Source of the DNA: a virus
Taxonomy: Duplodnaviria > Heunggongvirae > Uroviricota > Caudoviricetes
Length of the DNA stretch: 33,559 nt
Virus record (IMG/VR): IMGVR_UViG_2711768071_000021
Reading direction: 5' to 3' (one strand)
Shown: positions 3,307 through 33,121 of the stretch, piece after piece
How positions within the stretch are numbered: the first letter of the stretch is position 1
How the letters are laid out: each line of letters starts with the position of its first letter
The notes under the pieces: generated by a model
Database searches by the model: none
What the model was told of the DNA's origin: nothing
The model's input: only the letters and a program-made list of their open reading frames with translations
Position numbers and translations under genes: made by a program

Positions 3307-3882
3307 CTACGGCAGTGCTGGCCATTCAATATCCTGTGCAGTTGACGTATCAACACGGTTCAGCAATACCCGATACTTTTTCCATGCTTCCAGCAACGAG
3401 ATTTCTTCCTCCGTTGCAATTTCCAGATCTGCAGCATCCTGAAGCGGCGCAATATGCTCACTGGCTACCTGCATCAGGTTGTTTTTTGTTTCTTCCGCCT
3501 CCCGGATCCGGAACAGTTTTTCTGCTTCCGTATCCTTCACCCAGGCTGTGCCGTTCCACTTCTGAAACTCCCCTTCCGGGGATAACCAGGTGACATTTTC
3601 CGGTAATGGGCCAAGTTCAGAAATAAATAACGCGTCGCCGGAAGCCACGTCATAGACGGTTTTACCCCGATGATCTTCAACGAGATGCCACGATGCCTCA
3701 TCACTGTTGAAAACAGCCACGAAGCCAGCCGGAATATCTGGCGGTGCAATATAGGAACTGTTTGCTGGCAGACCTGTATGAGGCGGAATATATGCGTCAC
3801 CTTCACCAATAAATTCATTAGTTCCTGCCAGCAGATTATAAATTTTTATGGTCCGTGGTTGTTCACTCATTCTGAATGCCAT
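3307..3882 (-). CDS. tfa: Tail fiber assembly protein Tfa
   Basis: 191 aa beginning [24 protein letters not shown], lambda Tfa-like; start overlaps the stf stop by 1 nt. Confidence 0.9.
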
Positions 3883-6797
3883 TATGCAAGCCTCACAATG
3901 TAGTTAAATGCGATGTTTTTGACAGTGTTTTCCGCGTTACCAGCAGCGTTAACGGTGATGGTGTGTCCATGTGAGCCAATCGCAACAGAGTGCGTATGAG
4001 CACCAATACCGACAGTATGTGCGTGAGCACCTGCAGATGCAGCTGTGCCGCTGACACTATGAGTGTGCGCTCCTGCAGCACTTGTATTCACACTGGCCGC
4101 AGACACTACCTTATGTACTGACCCATTTTGTGACCACTGGCTGACTGCTGATGCGCCTGTGACACTATGAGTATGGTTTCCGGCACTTGCGGCTGTACCG
4201 CTCACACTGTGCGTATGCGCCCCGGTGTTATTCGTGGATTTAGTGCCGTAATCAAACGACGATGTGGTTTTCGTCCCCAAATCCGTACTGGATGCACTGG
4301 CGCTGTGGGTGTGCGATTTAATGCCGTCCTGTTCCTGAGATAATACGGCCCGACCACTGGCAGGTTTGCCCTTAATCGTCCAGCCACGCATATCAGGGAT
4401 CACGCCTGACGGATAAGCGGTTGCAAGTTTCGGGTAAGCGGATTTGTCAAAAGTCTGCCCCTGCATCAGGGCATAACCAGACGGAACGGTATCTGATGGC
4501 CACGGGATTGGTGCGCCAGGCGGATAAAACTGCTCTGATGGCGTATAGAGTGAATAAACTGTACCGTCCGTTAACCCTTCCGGCTTATTAGCAGAATATG
4601 CTGGTGACGTATGAATAGTCACGCTGGCATTACTGGTATAATCCCATTGAATATTTACACCAGTCGCATAATTTCCGATTGCAACGTAAATATCGTAAGT
4701 ATCACCAGATGTATTGACCCAGGCAAAATTTGTAAACCCTGTCGATGTGCGCTGCCATAAAGCACCAGTAATCCCCTTCGGATTACCATTACCTGCACGC
4801 AAAACAAGTTCAGATATACCTGCCTGTTGAGGTGACCCCACGTTAAATCCCGCGCCACCAATCAACGTAATTGAAACAACAGAACTCGCCTGTGGCATGG
4901 TTACCGTTGCTAATTTGAACCAACCAGCACCACCGCTGAAGGACATTGTTGTTGAGTTAAGCGTACCAATATCTTTCGGCGTCAGTGTTATATCCGCTGA
5001 AAGCGCCTTACCATTCACCTTACGGGCAGAAGGTACCCGACCATTCGCATTATCATTAGCTGCTTTCACTGCTTTCGGTGTCGCGGCAAGCGTTTCAGAT
5101 GCGCTGTTGGTTGCACTACTGAGCTGGACAATTCCTTTTTGTGCTGTCGTAGCGTCCTGAGCAGTATATTTCCCGTTAGCAAGGTCATAGGCTGCCTTTA
5201 CCGACTTTGGCGTTGCTGCCAGCATTTCAGATGTGCTGTTGGTCGCGCTGCTGAGCTGAACTATCCCTTTCTGTGCTGTCGTTGCATCCTGTGCGGTGTA
5301 TTTCCCGTTAGCCAGCTCATACGCGGCCTTAACGGCTTTTGGCGTTGCCGCCAGTGACTCGGAAGTGCTGTTAGTCGCACTGCTGAGCTGTACTATCCCC
5401 TTTTTCGTCGTGCTCGCATCCTCAAGCGCCACGGCGGATGCAATATCCTCTGCCCGTTTTGCCGCTGTCTCGGCGCGCGTTGCCGCGGATTCCGCCGTAC
5501 TTTTGCTCTGAGCTGCCGCCGTCGCACTGCCAGCTGCCTCTGTCGCCTTCGTGGATGCCGTCGTGGCGCTGCCCTTTGCTGCTGACGCCTGTCTGGTCGC
5601 CTCATCTTTTGAAGCAGACGCAGATGATGCCGATGACGCCGCCGAACTGGCGGACGATGCGGCAGCCGTTTTTGAGGATTCTGCGCTGGTTTCCGACGCT
5701 TTCGCGTTCGTCTCGGATGTCTTCGCTGCGGAAGCAGACCTCGCTGCTGCGCTGGCCTGTTCAGTGGCTTCGCCAGCCTTCGTTGTGGCTGTTGAAGCGG
5801 ACGATGCGGCGCTTTCTGCCGATTTTCCGGCAGCGGTGGCACTGGCTGAGGCCTGCCCGGCACTTGTTGACGCGGCACTGGCAGACGACGCAGCCGCTGT
5901 TTTTGAGCCTGCCGCAGCTGAGGCGCTCTGTCCCGCTGCCGTCTCAGAAGACCTGGCGTTCGTCTCGGACGTTTTTGCCGCCTTCGCGGAATTTGCTGCC
6001 GCCGTTGCCGAGGAAGCTGCGCTACTGGCGCTCGAGGATGCGTTCGTTTCTGATGATTTTGCCGCCTCTTTTGAAGCCGACGCATCCCGGGCTGAGGTGG
6101 CAGCTTCTGACGCTTTCGTGGTCGCGGTGGATGCAGAAGTGGCGGCTGATTGTTGTGACGCTGCAGCATTCGTTTCTGACGTTTTCGCGGCAGCGGCACT
6201 GGTAGCTGCCGCGCTTTTTGAGGACTCTGCAGCGGCAGCACTTTTTTCCGCTTCAGTGGCCTTTGTTGATGCCGTTCCTGCGCTGGAAGACGCTGACTGA
6301 GCCGACGAAGCGGCCTGTCCGGCTGACGTGCTGGCTGCGCGTGCTGAGCCTGCAGCATCAGTCGCACGGGTTGCCGCCTCACTGGCAGATGTGCCGGCAT
6401 CACTGGCTGACTTCTTTGCGGCTGCCGTGTTCTGTGCCACCACGGACGCGTTACGCGCCACCTCTTCCACCATCAGTTCAAAACGACGCAGTGCCTCCGG
6501 ACGGGCATCATCCTCCGTCATGGCACCGAGAAAATCATTCAGCGTACCGGGTTGAGAATCTTCATACACGGTGATGGTCCCGGCATGTGACGGCGGGAAT
6601 CCTTCCACCAACAGAATAACGCTGTACTGCCCGTACTCAACGTCCATGCTGTAACGCCCGGCTTCATCCGGATTTTCTGAGGCCAGCGTGTTCACCACCA
6701 CCGTGGTGCTGTTACGTTTTGCTTTCAGCTGGATTGTGCAGTTCTGTACCGGTTTTCCTGTGCCGTCTTTCAGTACACCTGAAATCTTTACTGCCAT
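3882..6797 (-). CDS. stf: Side tail fiber protein Stf
   Basis: Begins [26 protein letters not shown] (lambda Stf-like) at the ATG at 6797 with GGGGTG upstream; the track ORF starts 2 codons earlier at a GTG. Contains a long Ala/Ser/Thr-rich segment, three 44-aa repeats, and a C-terminal His-x-His repeat region. Confidence 0.9.
5010..5406 (-). repeat. Three tandem 132-bp coding repeats inside stf (44-aa units [43 protein letters not shown])
   Basis: Repeat units seen directly in DNA, starting near 5103, 5235 and 5367 on the plus strand (period 132 nt), and in the translation. Confidence 0.85.
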
Positions 6798-25917: not shown

Positions 25918-26211
25918 ATGAAAAAAATGTTGTTTTCTGCCGCTCTGGCAATGCTTATTACAGGATGTGCTCAACAGACGTTTACTGTTGGAAACAAACC
26001 GACAGCAGTAACACCAAAGGAAACCATCACCCATCATTTCTTCGTTTCGGGAATTGGACAGGAGAAAACTGTTGATGCAGCCAAAATTTGTGGCGGCGCA
26101 GAAAATGTTGTTAAAACAGAAACCCAGCAAACATTCGTAAATGGATTTCTCGGTTTTATTACTTTAGGCATTTATACTCCACTGGAAGCGCGTGTGTATT
26201 GCTCACAATAA
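25918..26211 (+). CDS. bor: Bor lipoprotein (serum-resistance lipoprotein, Iss homologue)
   Basis: MKKMLFSAALAMLITGCAQQTFTV... with lipobox LITGC; AGGA upstream of the ATG at 25918; on the opposite strand to the late operon, between Rz and the terminase region as in lambda. Confidence 0.92.
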   Translation: MKKMLFSAALAMLITGCAQQTFTVGNKPTAVTPKETITHHFFVSGIGQEKTVDAAKICGGAENVVKTETQQTFVNGFLGFITLGIYTPLEARVYCSQ

Positions 26212-27652: not shown

Positions 27653-27868
27653 TTACTCTCCCCGTGCAGCCTTACGACGGTCCTCTCTGATTTTGAAATA
27701 CAGGTTAGTCAGATATGTCAGCAGCCCAAACAGCAGACTCCCCAGCACGCCTATTGCCGCCCACTGAGACGGGGAAACCCTGTCCAGCAACTGCAGGAAC
27801 CAGTAGCCCGTTCCCACCGCTGACGTGGTGTATGACACACCTGTTGTGATTTTTTCCATCTGGTCCAT
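27653..27868 (-). CDS. S: Pinholin (phage 21 S-like, class II holin) with dual-start motif
   Basis: From the internal start [71 protein letters not shown] (71 aa); two Met codons three residues apart; two predicted transmembrane segments. The track ORF extends to 27973. Confidence 0.88.
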
Positions 27869-28175
27869 ACCCCGTCTCCCGTTATCCGGAAGCTGACAAC
27901 AATAAAAAAGCCACCAGTTAACTACTGATGGCTCTGATAACTCATGCAAGCGTCTCAGACGACCCACTGACACTACCGGTGAGTTTAACGATACCTTCCA
28001 TTTGACTGGCTCACTTTTTATGATGATGCCGGTGCATTTATCTCCAGCACCAGACTTTCTATCTCAACGCCATACGTTGCATTTTTGGTAATATCCGTCA
28101 GCGTCAGTGCATTTAGTCCCACTGCCAGACTGTCTTTTATGGCCTGGAATGCCGGGCCAGTACGATGACGTAGTA

Positions 28176-28364
28176 TCACTCCGGCTCAGTTGCACCACTG
28201 ACCACCACATCACCTTCTGCTGCAATCGCCTGCATCAGGGTATAAGGGGTTATGGCCACCGGACTACCAAACGGCTGCCAGCCCTCTTTCAGTTTATGTG
28301 TCAGCTTTTCCGCAAGATCTGACGGCGGCGCCGCCCTGACAACATCATAGTATTTAAATGCCAT
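28176..28364 (-). CDS. Small hypothetical protein (possibly DUF1737-like)
   Basis: MAFKYYDVVRAAPPSDLAEKLTHKLKEGWQPFGSPVAITPYTLMQAIAAEGDVVVSGATEPE; the alternative start 5 codons upstream (28379) is also possible. Confidence 0.55.
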   Translation of the reverse strand: MAFKYYDVVRAAPPSDLAEKLTHKLKEGWQPFGSPVAITPYTLMQAIAAEGDVVVSGATEPE

Positions 28365-28623
28365 GGTTCTTTCCACCATCTGAAAAATAATTCTTTAAAA
28401 TACCTGACATGTAATACAGAAAAAACACAAAACCATACCTTAAATAAAAACCTGATTATCAAGCAGATATGCATGGATAAACTACAAGACGAGATATAAA
28501 CCACCCTGTATTTAAATAAACAATAAACAACATCAGAAAAATAATTCTGCTCTATGGTTTAATTCAAAAATATCATTTATACTTTTCAGAACATCACCAG
28601 CAAGGCATAAACAAGGAAAGTAA

Positions 28624-28959
28624 ATGAAGTGGATTGTGATTGATACAGTTATCCAGCCATCATGCGGAATATCTTTTTCAGTCATATGGAGTAAAATAAA
28701 ATTAATAATCTGGTATCAATCGGATGCTTTCTTACCTCCTGAAAGTATATTTACACTGACTCACACAGGCATCATGCTCAATAACAAAGTGCTACCTGTA
28801 ACCATTTACAACGTAGTACCATTCAATAAAACATTCTGGAATTTAATCAAAAACAACCAGGAATGCCCTACAAATACAGATAACGTAATGAATGAATGCT
28901 TTAATAACCGTTGCACTCTGCAAATATGTCCTTATGGACTAAAACAACAAAGTCCATAA
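28624..28959 (+). CDS. Hypothetical protein (111 aa, Cys-containing) in AT-rich cargo region
   Basis: ATG preceded by AAGGAAAG; embedded in a markedly AT-rich stretch; opposite strand to the late operon; followed by a GC-rich hairpin. No family recognised. Confidence 0.55.
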
Positions 28960-28994
28960 GGAGTTTACTCACATCTGACAAAATCAATATAAAC

Positions 28995-29014
28995 AGCCCC
29001 TCCGGAGAGGGGCT
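28995..29014. terminator. GC-rich perfect hairpin (AGCCCCTC-cgga-GAGGGGCT), probable terminator
   Basis: 8-bp perfect stem with a 4-nt loop; a T-rich tract follows on the minus strand (TTTATATTGATTTT); 35 nt downstream of the plus-strand 111-aa gene. Confidence 0.5.
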
Positions 29015-29406
29015 GGAGAGTGGCGCTATGTGCCATTGCATGGTGCCGGGTGCCTCCCGGTGAATTCAGTACCAGCACCTGAATCCGCGATTATCCCATA
29101 TACCTACTCGCTGATTGCCCCTCCGCACAGGGGGATTCACCATGCCAGTTTCTTTTAACAAACTCCCCGCAAACCAGACAACAGTCAACCGCCTGAATTG
29201 TGAAGTATTTAAAAATTTCTCCCGCTAACTGATACCCGGCTAACAGTCTGGCGTTTTCTTTTTCAGCAACGGGAAAGCAACAACCACCACACCCGCCACC
29301 AGCACACCGTCAGCCAGCACTGACATTATCCGGCTGCTGCAATGCCACTCACAAAAACAGTAAGCAATCACTTTTTACCGTAACAAGTGATAATCCAGAT
29401 ATGTAT

Positions 29407-29760
29407 CTACCCCAGATGAGTAATCCGAAGTTCATCCATACCACAGGTACTGGCTATTCTGTTGTACTCCTGAACAAGAGCAAATAATTCTGAATTAGCA
29501 ACCATGAACTCATCGCAAACCCTCTGTATAGCATCACTATTCAGAATAATAACGTCTCTTCCCGAAAGACGATCAGGAGTACAGAACAAAACTGTCAAAC
29601 GGCTGAAGGCCTTTGCTCGTCCTGCATTGACTATATCAATACGCTGCCTAAGGATGAAACACCCCGACGCCTCATCAATATTCACTCTACCCACACCATA
29701 TGAATGATAAATATTTAATGCTGAAAAAACCATTAGACCGTATAACAAACACTCAATCAA
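29407..29760 (-). CDS. Hypothetical protein (117 aa from a TTG, or 108 aa from the first ATG)
   Basis: Track ORF begins with TTG; no convincing SD for either start; AT-rich; downstream of the tRNAs on the late-operon strand. Confidence 0.4.
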   Translation of the reverse strand: MIECLLYGLMVFSALNIYHSYGVGRVNIDEASGCFILRQRIDIVNAGRAKAFSRLTVLFCTPDRLSGRDVIILNSDAIQRVCDEFMVANSELFALVQEYNRIASTCGMDELRITHLG

Positions 29761-29873
29761 TACTTAACAGAACTTTTATTTTTGACAAACATAAAATATT
29801 TTCAACAATATCCTGAGCCAGGTATATTTCAGTATAAGGCTCTGCCGGAAGGAATCTGGAAGAATGAATATAG

Positions 29874-29947
29874 CGCGCTGTACTGGATTCGAACCAGTGA
29901 CCGATTGCTTAGAAGGCAATTGCTCTGTCCGGCTGAGCTAACAACGC
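29874..29947 (-). tRNA. tRNA-Arg (anticodon UCU, reads AGA); CCA not encoded
   Basis: Cloverleaf built by hand: acceptor GCGTTGT/ACAGCGC (one G-U pair), D-stem GCTC/GAGC, anticodon stem ATTGC/GCAAT with loop CTTCTAA, T-arm ACTGG-TTCGAAT-CCAGT. Confidence 0.8.
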
Positions 29948-30047: not shown

Positions 30048-30123
30048 TGGTGGCCCTTGCTGGATTTGAACCAGCGACCTGGCGATTATGAGTCGCTCGC
30101 TCTCACCACTGAGCTAAAGGGCC
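30048..30123 (-). tRNA. tRNA-Ile2 type (anticodon CAU, ileX/ileZ-like; would read AUA if lysidine-modified, otherwise Met)
   Basis: 76 nt: GGCCCTTTAGCTCAGTGGTGAGAGCGAGCGACTCATAATCGCCAGGTCGCTGGTTCAAATCCAGCAAGGGCCACCA; perfect 7-bp acceptor stem, encoded CCA, close to my memory of E. coli ileX. Confidence 0.85.
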
Positions 30124-30159
30124 GGGAGCAGAATAATAACGGTCCGTAATTAATTCCGC

Positions 30160-30186
30160 AATAAAAAACCCGCTCGGCGGCGGGTT
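30160..30186 (-). terminator. tR'-like intrinsic terminator downstream of the late promoter (the site Q must override)
   Basis: Stem ACCCGC / GCGGGT with loop CGCCGA, followed by TTTTTTATT on the minus strand, about 45 nt downstream of the predicted start site. Confidence 0.7.
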
Positions 30187-30233
30187 GTAGAAACTCTTCT
30201 AACGTCAGGCATAAAAAGCCCATTATTATGACG

Positions 30234-30261
30234 AATTTACCACAGATTCCGGAAAAATCAA
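30234..30261 (-). promoter_or_regulatory. Late promoter PR'-like (-35 TTGATT, 16-bp spacer, -10 TAAATT), immediately downstream of Q
   Basis: Near-consensus sigma70 hexamers read on the minus strand; position and orientation match lambda PR'; the Q-binding (qut) region is expected to overlap. Confidence 0.6.
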
Positions 30262-30266
30262 CCTTG

Positions 30267-31088
30267 TTACCTAGTTACCTTTTTTAACTGCCGCTCAGCC
30301 CATGCTTCTTCAATATCAAACCGGGTCACCAGCGCATCATAGAATTTCTTAACTGTTTTTTCCCATGACGCGCGTGTTATCTGGTTTGTCACCTCGCATA
30401 TAGCATTAAATGCCTCCGTTGATGGTAGTCTTTCATAGCCACGACCACCACAACGCTGGCAGTCTCTGATAACAGGCATACCACGTTTTACCGACTCTTC
30501 ACGATGAATGGCGACACCACGCCCACGGCAATCCTTACAGGCAGTGGAAACCTCACCCTTTCCGCCACACTCCGGACAGGCAACTTTTACCACCTCCCTG
30601 ACTTTTTTCCATTCTTCCCAGTAAGACGAATACACACCTTTCGTACACTTTGCCCATACCGGCGGCTTACCATCCGGATACTGGACCTTGTTTGTAAAAA
30701 CTACGCTTTCAATAAATTTTTCCCCATAGCAACAAGGGCACTGCTTTTTACTCGCTGCGCTACGGGCATAATCCTCAAAAGCGTACGAAGCCATAATGCG
30801 CATCACTACCGGTTTTATTTCTGCCGGAAGTTTTCTCAACGCCGCCACACGATCGCACCGACTGAGTGCATAATCTGCCAGTAATTCTGTTGCCCGCGCC
30901 CTGTCATTCATACTGATGCCCATTTTCCCCAGGAACGCAGAAAAACCCATCTCAGCCCGATTCTGTGTCATGCCCTGCGCGGCCATCACATCAGTGATAC
31001 TCAGCGCATCTTTTGACGTTGAGGCCGATGCATCGGTCAGGCCAGGGGATTTTGGGGAGTAGTATTTCGGTAAATCTTCCAGTTTCAT
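30267..31088 (-). CDS. Q: Late-gene antiterminator Q
   Basis: 273 aa with several Cys-x2-Cys pairs (zinc-binding); located immediately upstream of the PR'-like promoter, tR'-like terminator and tRNAs. Confidence 0.85.
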   Translation of the reverse strand: MKLEDLPKYYSPKSPGLTDASASTSKDALSITDVMAAQGMTQNRAEMGFSAFLGKMGISMNDRARATELLADYALSRCDRVAALRKLPAEIKPVVMRIMASYAFEDYARSAASKKQCPCCYGEKFIESVVFTNKVQYPDGKPPVWAKCTKGVYSSYWEEWKKVREVVKVACPECGGKGEVSTACKDCRGRGVAIHREESVKRGMPVIRDCQRCGGRGYERLPSTEAFNAICEVTNQITRASWEKTVKKFYDALVTRFDIEEAWAERQLKKVTR

Positions 31089-32965: not shown

Positions 32966-33121
32966 TTACTCCTCAGGTTCGTAAGCTGTGAAGACAGCGA
33001 CCTCCGTCTGGCCGGTTCGGATTCGTACCTCGCAGAGGTCTTTCCTCGTTACCAGTGCCGTCACTATGACGGTTAAACAGATGACGATCAGGGCGATTAA
33101 CATCGCCTTTTGCTGCTTCAT
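32966..33121 (-). CDS. hokD: Hok-family type I toxin (HokD/RelF-like)
   Basis: Hand translation MKQQKAMLIALIVICLTVIVTALVTRKDLCEVRIRTGQTEVAVFTAYEPEE (51 aa), matching my memory of HokD; below the ORF-track cutoff. Confidence 0.85.
   Translation of the reverse strand: MKQQKAMLIALIVICLTVIVTALVTRKDLCEVRIRTGQTEVAVFTAYEPEE

Follow-up and report, generated by a model that had tools for sequence, protein, structure and literature searches.

In Stx2 phages, the toxin genes stx2AB lie just upstream of an STnc100-family small RNA (PMC12370729, PMC12711010), which these reports place 75 nt downstream of stx2B and describe as overlapping EcOnc27/sRNA103, a species reported in turn, in work cited in PMC12711010, as a discrete Hfq-binding RNA in EHEC. 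STnc100 has also been related to PasD (bioRxiv 10.64898/2026.05.13.724894). A second point of comparison is iraL, which in strain CFT073 is carried on the potB island (Hryckowian et al., 2014; PMC4045071). [quoted passage not shown] Its K-12 paralogue, IraM, is likewise encoded by an AT-rich gene adjoining prophage DNA (e14), yet differs in being induced by Mg2+ starvation and in binding both RssB domains (bioRxiv 10.1101/2023.01.07.523045), whereas IraL is described as acting in log phase and as contacting the N-terminal domain only (PMC4045071).

The window analyzed here, a 33,559-nt (33.5-kb) stretch of DNA, comes from a prophage that is integrated at ydfJ and that otherwise looks complete, from the immunity region through to the tail fibres. 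Its Q gene (30267-31088), late tRNAs, holin, lysozyme and Rz are all encoded on the minus strand. A late-region tRNA with a CAT anticodon (30048..30123, minus), called Met by ARAGORN and tRNA-Ile (ileZ-like) by RefSeq, contributes to the upstream limit of the slot that concerns us, a tRNA-Arg (TCT; 29873..29947, minus) is the last conserved element ahead of the cargo, and a class II holin gene (27653..27868, minus) marks the downstream boundary. Two further Rfam matches beside the tRNAs, Trp_leader and Plastid-ycf2, are weak, fall under their gathering scores, and were set aside as terminator and tRNA look-alikes. Taken together, the comparisons described below make it very probable that the region is a slot for accessory genes (morons) in an E. 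coli lambdoid prophage, reaching from Q and the late tRNAs to the lysis cassette, and that it is a mosaic. Five elements would follow one another after Q and the tRNAs: a small uncharacterized gene that we refer to as ORF92, a truncated DUF3927 gene, an STnc100 sRNA, an inverted iraL cassette, and a remnant of nanS-p.

An earlier, sequence-only reading of this DNA had proposed that the region is where Stx phages carry their toxin, and the comparison with stx loci bears this out. Stx-negative relatives show the order Q, tRNAs, STnc100, nanS-p, with stx2AB entering upstream of STnc100 where it is present; the stx2AB locus as a whole (Q, tRNAs, cargo, STnc100, nanS-p, holin) has the same order as our slot. 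The window differs in that it carries no stxA or stxB between the late tRNAs and STnc100, where ORF92 and the DUF3927 gene are the only ORFs, and in that its cargo is unrelated to the toxin genes in both sequence and function. The shift in base composition noted in the same reading is likewise real, and extreme: the iraL cassette (28380..28985, plus) has a GC content of 0.318 against a mean of 0.509 (sd 0.063) across the 33.5 kb, and the 300-bp window beginning at 28351 (GC 0.29) is the lowest of the entire stretch, such that composition is anything but uniform. An opposite-strand gene does exist, as had been claimed. With Q, the tRNAs and the genes for holin and lysozyme all lying on the minus strand, the 117-codon minus-strand ORF is co-directional with late transcription, and it is the plus-strand gene that is inverted.

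That plus-strand gene (28624..28959) encodes a protein of 111 amino acids and, as had been described, is well provided with a ribosome-binding site, AAGGAAAG standing directly ahead of its ATG start codon. No family had been recognized for it, a point that does not survive comparison with family profiles and with the PDB, which place it in a known one: over residues 1-110 the product matches the NCBIfam model for IraM (NF007393), whose cut-off of 121 bits it exceeds with 162.3, and it matches PDB entry 8twd (IraM) with E=1.4e-31. Alignment with K-12 IraM shows 61% identity over 107 residues, and 109 of 111 residues are identical to CFT073 IraL, the two substitutions (S78N and L89M, from CFT073 to the window) both being conservative. 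In a 100%-identical record from strain EC32, RefSeq names the gene 'anti-adapter protein IraM'. Judged by its sequence, the gene is iraL, an anti-adaptor already published and characterized in CFT073. The proposal of an undescribed function, such as defence, thus fails for the main gene of the slot, and no part of the region matches a PADLOC model; as iraL accounts for the odd, AT-rich, inverted gene, the region need not be pursued as a new system.

Inspection of the residues through which IraM contacts RssB, as listed from the IraM-RssB crystal structure (bioRxiv 10.1101/2023.01.07.523045), shows that 11 of 14 are identical in the window's IraL when it is aligned to K-12 IraM (I4, I6, C14, F18, W22, K26, W30, I42, I61, Y62 and P66), and that three are altered (T13S, H63N and I64V). 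[quoted passage not shown] By analogy with the CFT073 protein, IraL would bind the RssB receiver domain and stop RssB from delivering sigma-S to ClpXP; sigma-S spared in this way would be expected to accumulate during exponential growth and to raise the general stress response of the lysogen. Prophage-borne iraL elevates sigma-S in growing cells and has been associated with uropathogenic lineages. The cassette is missing at the same position in phages JLK-2012 and phi296. It is horizontally acquired cargo, and its action would be on the host.

The arrangement in CFT073 is the closest known counterpart of the slot. The prophage at potB in that strain shows the same succession of Q, tRNAs, DUF3927, a pseudogene fragment, an inverted IraM-family gene, a DUF1737 fragment and a class II holin, with 98% DNA identity over 1.65 kb, STnc100 included, and with iraL inverted in the same manner. 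The two prophages differ in their location (potB as opposed to ydfJ) and in their head-tail modules, the window encoding an HK97/P27-type terminase and CFT073 a lambda-like one. Absence of transcription, which the sequence-only reading had named as an outcome that would speak against acquired cargo, is not what has been reported for the CFT073 gene, for which log-phase transcription and a start site mapped by 5' RACE are described (PMC4045071).

Whether the window's own copy is expressed to the same degree is uncertain, since its probable sigma-70 promoter carries a lesion. Alignment with CFT073, JJ1887 and phage 640R1 places the putative promoter at 28556..28591 (plus), with a likely -10 element, TATACT, at 28578-28583, a likely -35 region, GGTTTA/ATT, at 28556-28564, and a start site near 28591, the last taken from the '-100 to +33' construct described in PMC4045071. 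Relative to CFT073, which reads TTTACA here, the window lacks a single base between 28561 and 28562: the aligned sequences are GGTTTA-ATTC in the window, GGTTTACATTC in CFT073 and GGTTTATATTC in vB_EcoS-640R1. The loss falls in or next to the probable -35 and so shortens the -35/-10 spacing by one, and this iraL copy may consequently be weakly expressed or silenced. The -10, the length of the 5' UTR, the Shine-Dalgarno sequence and the remainder of the promoter are conserved with respect to CFT073; two bases just ahead of the start codon differ. The promoter of JJ1887 is identical to that of the window and bears the same 1-nt lesion, and the allele is most likely the mutated JJ1886 iraL2 allele, shared between the window and the ST131-lineage strain JJ1887. 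The upstream region bears no relation to that of K-12 iraM, and examination by eye revealed no canonical direct repeat of the PhoP box that is present there. Given that iraL is convergent with late transcription, any read-through that depends on Q upon induction would run antisense through the gene and should oppose its expression.

Between iraL and the 117-codon ORF, the sequence-only reading had noted some 450 bp free of any long ORF. No ORF of more than 50 amino acids is indeed found in 28960-29406, but the interval is not empty, as it holds a 43-residue DUF3927 protein and a full-length STnc100 sRNA. The former (29240..29371, minus) matches PF13064 with 95.6 bits against a gathering score of 25 and belongs to phrog_1470, a family labelled 'TciB-like' in PHROGs. 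The C-terminal half of this small membrane protein, SSRIMSVLADGVLVAGVVVVAFPLLKKK, is identical to that of TciB, encoded in JLK-2012 by the tciA-tciB pair, a cassette that other lambdoid prophages carry as well. Measured against the 54-residue TciB of JLK-2012 and a 50-residue Citrobacter homologue, the copy in the window departs from the full-length architecture of two hydrophobic helices: its C-terminal transmembrane helix is kept, and the first helix (MRLAVVALLLFLVVMV in JLK-2012) has been replaced by IAYCFCEWHC through indels of 5, 4 and 11 nt. Also unlike JLK-2012, the window has no tciA and instead carries ORF92 in the upstream place; the peptide is probably a relic left by loss of the TerB-like tciA and of the 5' end of tciB. 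A literature search for TciA and TciB returned nothing relevant, only unrelated Trypanosoma papers.

The STnc100 gene (RF02076; 28985..29174, minus) was located with a covariance model, which it matches end to end (model positions 1-206 of 206) with a score of 132.4 bits (gathering score 47); downstream of tciB, JLK-2012 carries an STnc100 that is 94% identical in DNA. The predicted folding energy is -74.6 kcal/mol, with a z-score of only -2.26. At the 3' end of the sRNA lies an intrinsic terminator hairpin (28994..29015, minus) of 9 bp, seven of them G-C, followed by TTTATATTGA; the T-rich tail is on the minus strand, and the plus strand has no U-tract. This match assigns the predicted RNA to the STnc100 family, and Hfq binding would be a property carried over from its relatives only. 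As with the EcOnc27/sRNA103-type RNAs, which sit right before nanS-p and after toxin-site cargo, the window's STnc100 follows cargo at the toxin site; it differs in that the cargo is the ORF92-DUF3927 pair rather than stx2B, and in that the iraL cassette parts it from nanS-p. The sRNA could be made either as the 3' end of an ORF92-DUF3927 transcript or from a start of its own, and with its own terminator it would close off the position held by stx2AB in Stx2 phages.

On the far side of the iraL cassette, two fragments on the minus strand represent the ends of nanS-p. An N-terminal remnant (28176..28379), which matches DUF1737 (PF08410) and the N-terminus of phrog_143, corresponds to residues 1-62 of the 617-residue esterase, is 94% identical to that stretch of YjhS, and is marked as a pseudogene in RefSeq; a C-terminal remnant (28018..28179), matching the C-terminus of phrog_143, corresponds to residues 572-617, with 89% identity to YjhS. 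The catalytic middle, some 510 amino acids, has been deleted. A NanS-p 9-O-acetyl sialic acid esterase combines DUF1737 with a catalytic domain, and of this combination the two ends alone remain.

Comparison across related prophages, which the sequence-only reading had asked for, shows that the slot is a variable cargo hotspot whose contents differ from phage to phage. In the Stx-negative phages phi296 and PPwrbA_EH2201 (the layout of the latter as read from ORFs and Rfam matches), the slot is empty: Q and three tRNAs are followed about 100 bp on by STnc100 and then by a 645-residue NanS. The interval between the tRNAs and STnc100 is occupied by tciA-tciB in JLK-2012, and by ORF92 and the truncated DUF3927 gene in the window and in CFT073. 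A second insertion point lies between the STnc100 terminator and the start of nanS-p; the window carries the iraL cassette here, and JLK-2012 and phi296 have non-coding sequence only. Two further loci (L002 and L006) hold other cargo in the slot, and there are loci at which two copies of STnc100 flank additional cargo. This pattern describes an exchange of cargo around a fixed STnc100 landmark at the Shiga-toxin position. The genes in the slot are not phage housekeeping genes, and the inverted AT-rich gene is of acquired origin; the hotspot is real, and its contents are largely already known. Among 5426 complete E. coli genomes, the iraL cassette is found in 1446, the ORF92 region in 1187, and the full 1.5-kb arrangement, counted from 80% coverage upward, in 863, across which identity is 95-100%. 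The corresponding 1.5 kb of EC958 is a 99.9% match.

The part of the slot that lacks a published counterpart is the minus-strand ORF at 29407..29760, which is present as described earlier, with 117 codons and a non-ATG (TTG) start, and for which the earlier failure to recognize a characterized family stands. The ORF matches the profile of phrog_2873, a PHROG with no assigned function, over its entire length (E=6.6e-70, positions 1-108 of 108). Homologues are mostly 91-99 amino acids long and align from the sequence MNIDE onward, with Xenorhabdus-type relatives reaching 106-110 residues; as the lengths and the alignments begin there, the conserved protein is a 92-residue core (29407-29685) that starts at a GTG codon at 29685, hence ORF92. 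This start has no convincing Shine-Dalgarno sequence. The homologues fall into a set that is 95-99% identical, a second E. coli set at 54-64% identity, and more remote members, whose identity drops to 21-44%, from Citrobacter, Salmonella, Serratia, Morganella and Xenorhabdus. Comparison with a 67%-identical E. coli variant gives a dN/dS of 0.28 in frame and of 0.8-1.2 in the other two frames, and the differences number 25, 23 and 43 at first, second and third codon positions, respectively. The low in-frame ratio and the concentration of changes at third positions indicate that ORF92 is a real gene, and this pattern of substitution is that of a protein under purifying selection. An AlphaFold2 model shows a two-helix hairpin (pLDDT 88). 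Searches of Pfam, NCBIfam and PADLOC gave no match to ORF92, a sequence search of the PDB gave only a chance thioredoxin match (E=0.55), and Foldseek against the PDB and BFVD gave nothing under E=0.28.

In Morganella the homologue of ORF92 lies between Q and the holin; in Serratia it comes after Q and two tRNAs and ahead of the lysozyme; in Salmonella it follows two tRNAs and precedes Rha and the holin; and in Citrobacter it stands ahead of TerB, DUF3927, the holin and the endolysin. The position between Q and the lysis genes thus recurs in Escherichia, Citrobacter, Salmonella, Serratia and Morganella, the exceptions being plasmid-like surroundings in E. coli and a Mu-like setting in Xenorhabdus. 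As the first ORF after the tRNAs, ORF92 would be read as part of the late transcript. It may act in the lytic programme.

The features of ORF92 also bear on a different proposal, namely that the slot encodes an undescribed system for anti-phage defence, exclusion or toxicity, of which ORF92 and the DUF3927 membrane peptide would be the candidate components. A small membrane peptide beside a small soluble protein is a common layout of toxin and abortive-infection systems; ORF92 has neither a recognizable family nor an informative fold, is under purifying selection, and sits within a known moron hotspot, and its Citrobacter homologue precedes a TerB-DUF3927 pair. We nevertheless regard this proposal as very improbable. 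PADLOC at E<=0.1 matches none of ORF92, DUF3927, IraL or the Citrobacter TerB and DUF3927 proteins, and the only match among seven proteins is a marginal one to the TciA of JLK-2012 (PDC-S48, E=0.0031). The window's DUF3927 protein is truncated and its TerB missing, and the Morganella, Serratia and Salmonella homologues of ORF92 occur with neither DUF3927 nor TerB, which indicates that ORF92 has no conserved partner. In addition, ORF92 runs in the direction of the late operon, and no promoter of its own rises above chance (six promoter-like matches in the region, as compared with 5.0 expected from shuffled sequence), which suits a protein of the lytic cycle better than a defence protein expressed in the lysogen.

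Decay is the other explanation to be considered. A region consisting mostly of debris, with no current function in the lysogen and an ORF surviving by linkage only, would account for the nucleotide lost at the probable -35 of iraL, for the missing first helix of DUF3927, for the roughly 510 residues missing from nanS-p, and for the three pseudogene fragments that RefSeq marks in the region, and the iraL report (PMC4045071) leaves open whether the mutated JJ1886 iraL2 copy is expressed. Decay on this scale is nonetheless hard to reconcile with an intact iraL frame two conservative changes away from a characterized protein, with a -10 element, Shine-Dalgarno sequence and remaining promoter that are preserved, or with an STnc100 that matches its model from end to end. 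The 863 genomes moreover retain the arrangement at 95-100% identity, 1446 of 5426 carry the iraL cassette, the ORF92 family bears the mark of purifying selection, and the prophage otherwise looks complete. We therefore judge general decay to be unlikely, if somewhat less so than a defence system.

The reading that we prefer, a moron slot of mosaic and largely known content, leaves the ORF92 family as its sole unexplored part. The slot in this respect holds a small, conserved late-operon gene that is systematically unannotated: among the matches listed, RefSeq/PGAP carries no annotation of ORF92. We suggest, tentatively and with rather low confidence, that phrog_2873 and its distant relatives constitute a conserved accessory component of lambdoid late operons that has gone unrecognized and is left unannotated in RefSeq for more than 1100 complete E. 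coli genomes (among the matches listed). Such a protein could serve a specific purpose in the lytic programme or in conflict between phage and host, such as lysis timing, host takeover or counter-defence. Three scans of viral contigs with the distant ORF92 homologues returned no matches, and a tblastn search with the same proteins against sequenced phages recovered a single one, mEp460_ev081.

In some related prophages, a single Q-to-lysis interval holds two copies of STnc100, the small RNA (RF02076) with a terminator that adjoins the cassette of the inverted, IraM-family anti-adaptor gene iraL in the window. The copies lie at 2344-2556 and 5650-5839 in one such locus (L006) and at 3607-3795 and 4071-4264 in another (L002), and each copy in these two-copy prophages closes a separate cargo block; the blocks of L006 include a TolA-like gene, an AraC-like gene with an IS3-family element, and ORF92. 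The STnc100 sRNA/terminator element seems to recur as a boundary of cassettes or as a landmark for recombination. Inspection of the 3' end of iraL revealed a perfect 10-bp inverted repeat, CCTTATGGAC ... GTCCATAAGG (28929-28960), that spans the last codons and stop of the gene and encodes the QQSP extension of IraL relative to K-12 IraM. Because no plus-strand U-tract terminator was found after this repeat, the iraL transcript may read through into STnc100 as an antisense RNA.

The ORF92 gene itself (29407-29685, minus strand) lacks annotation in the RefSeq (PGAP) records inspected. Under all 12 matches sampled from the 1187 complete E. coli genomes with an ORF92 match, the RefSeq features were either 'none' or only tRNA-Arg, and the records of EC32, the strain that matches at 100%, and of uropathogenic CFT073 show no CDS at this position; unlike RefSeq, GenBank submitters' annotations and PHROGs do contain the gene. 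A 91-aa homologue with 35% identity to ORF92, P0094, is encoded at 5001-5276 in two plasmid-like E. coli contigs (L012 and L013), a non-prophage context. There, a PapB-regulated chaperone-usher fimbrial operon stands on one side of P0094, and a tyrosine recombinase and a Rep3 replication gene lie a few kilobases off on the other.

By RefSeq annotation and composition, the prophage in the window carries a second inverted moron besides iraL, a lipoprotein gene of the iss/bor type ('increased serum survival'; 25918-26211, plus strand). A composition scan of the window places it in an AT-rich patch with a GC content of about 0.39-0.41; the gene lies a short way downstream of Rz/Rz1, the lysis genes, and on the strand opposite to them. 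Among the AT-rich islands of the window, the one at 1600-2750 (GC 0.32-0.37) ranks second; it corresponds to ydfK (cold-shock-like) and ynfT, neighbours of pinQ, at the end of the prophage that adjoins the truncated ydfJ attachment site.

In the interval from Q to the first tRNA (30124-30266), a strong minus-strand terminator, AACCCGCCGCCGAGCGGGTT followed by a T run (30186-30167), is the tR' that is expected to follow the late promoter pR'; it would yield a short transcript resembling lambda 6S or StxS. Trp_leader gives a weak Rfam match in this interval (25.7 bits, where the gathering score is 41), which most probably reflects the terminator itself. Upstream of the DUF968-RusA-Q block lies the type I toxin gene hokD (32966-33121, minus strand), an arrangement common to the window, CFT073 and a Salmonella relative, and in the last of these an Rfam match identifies a sok antitoxin RNA beside hokD.
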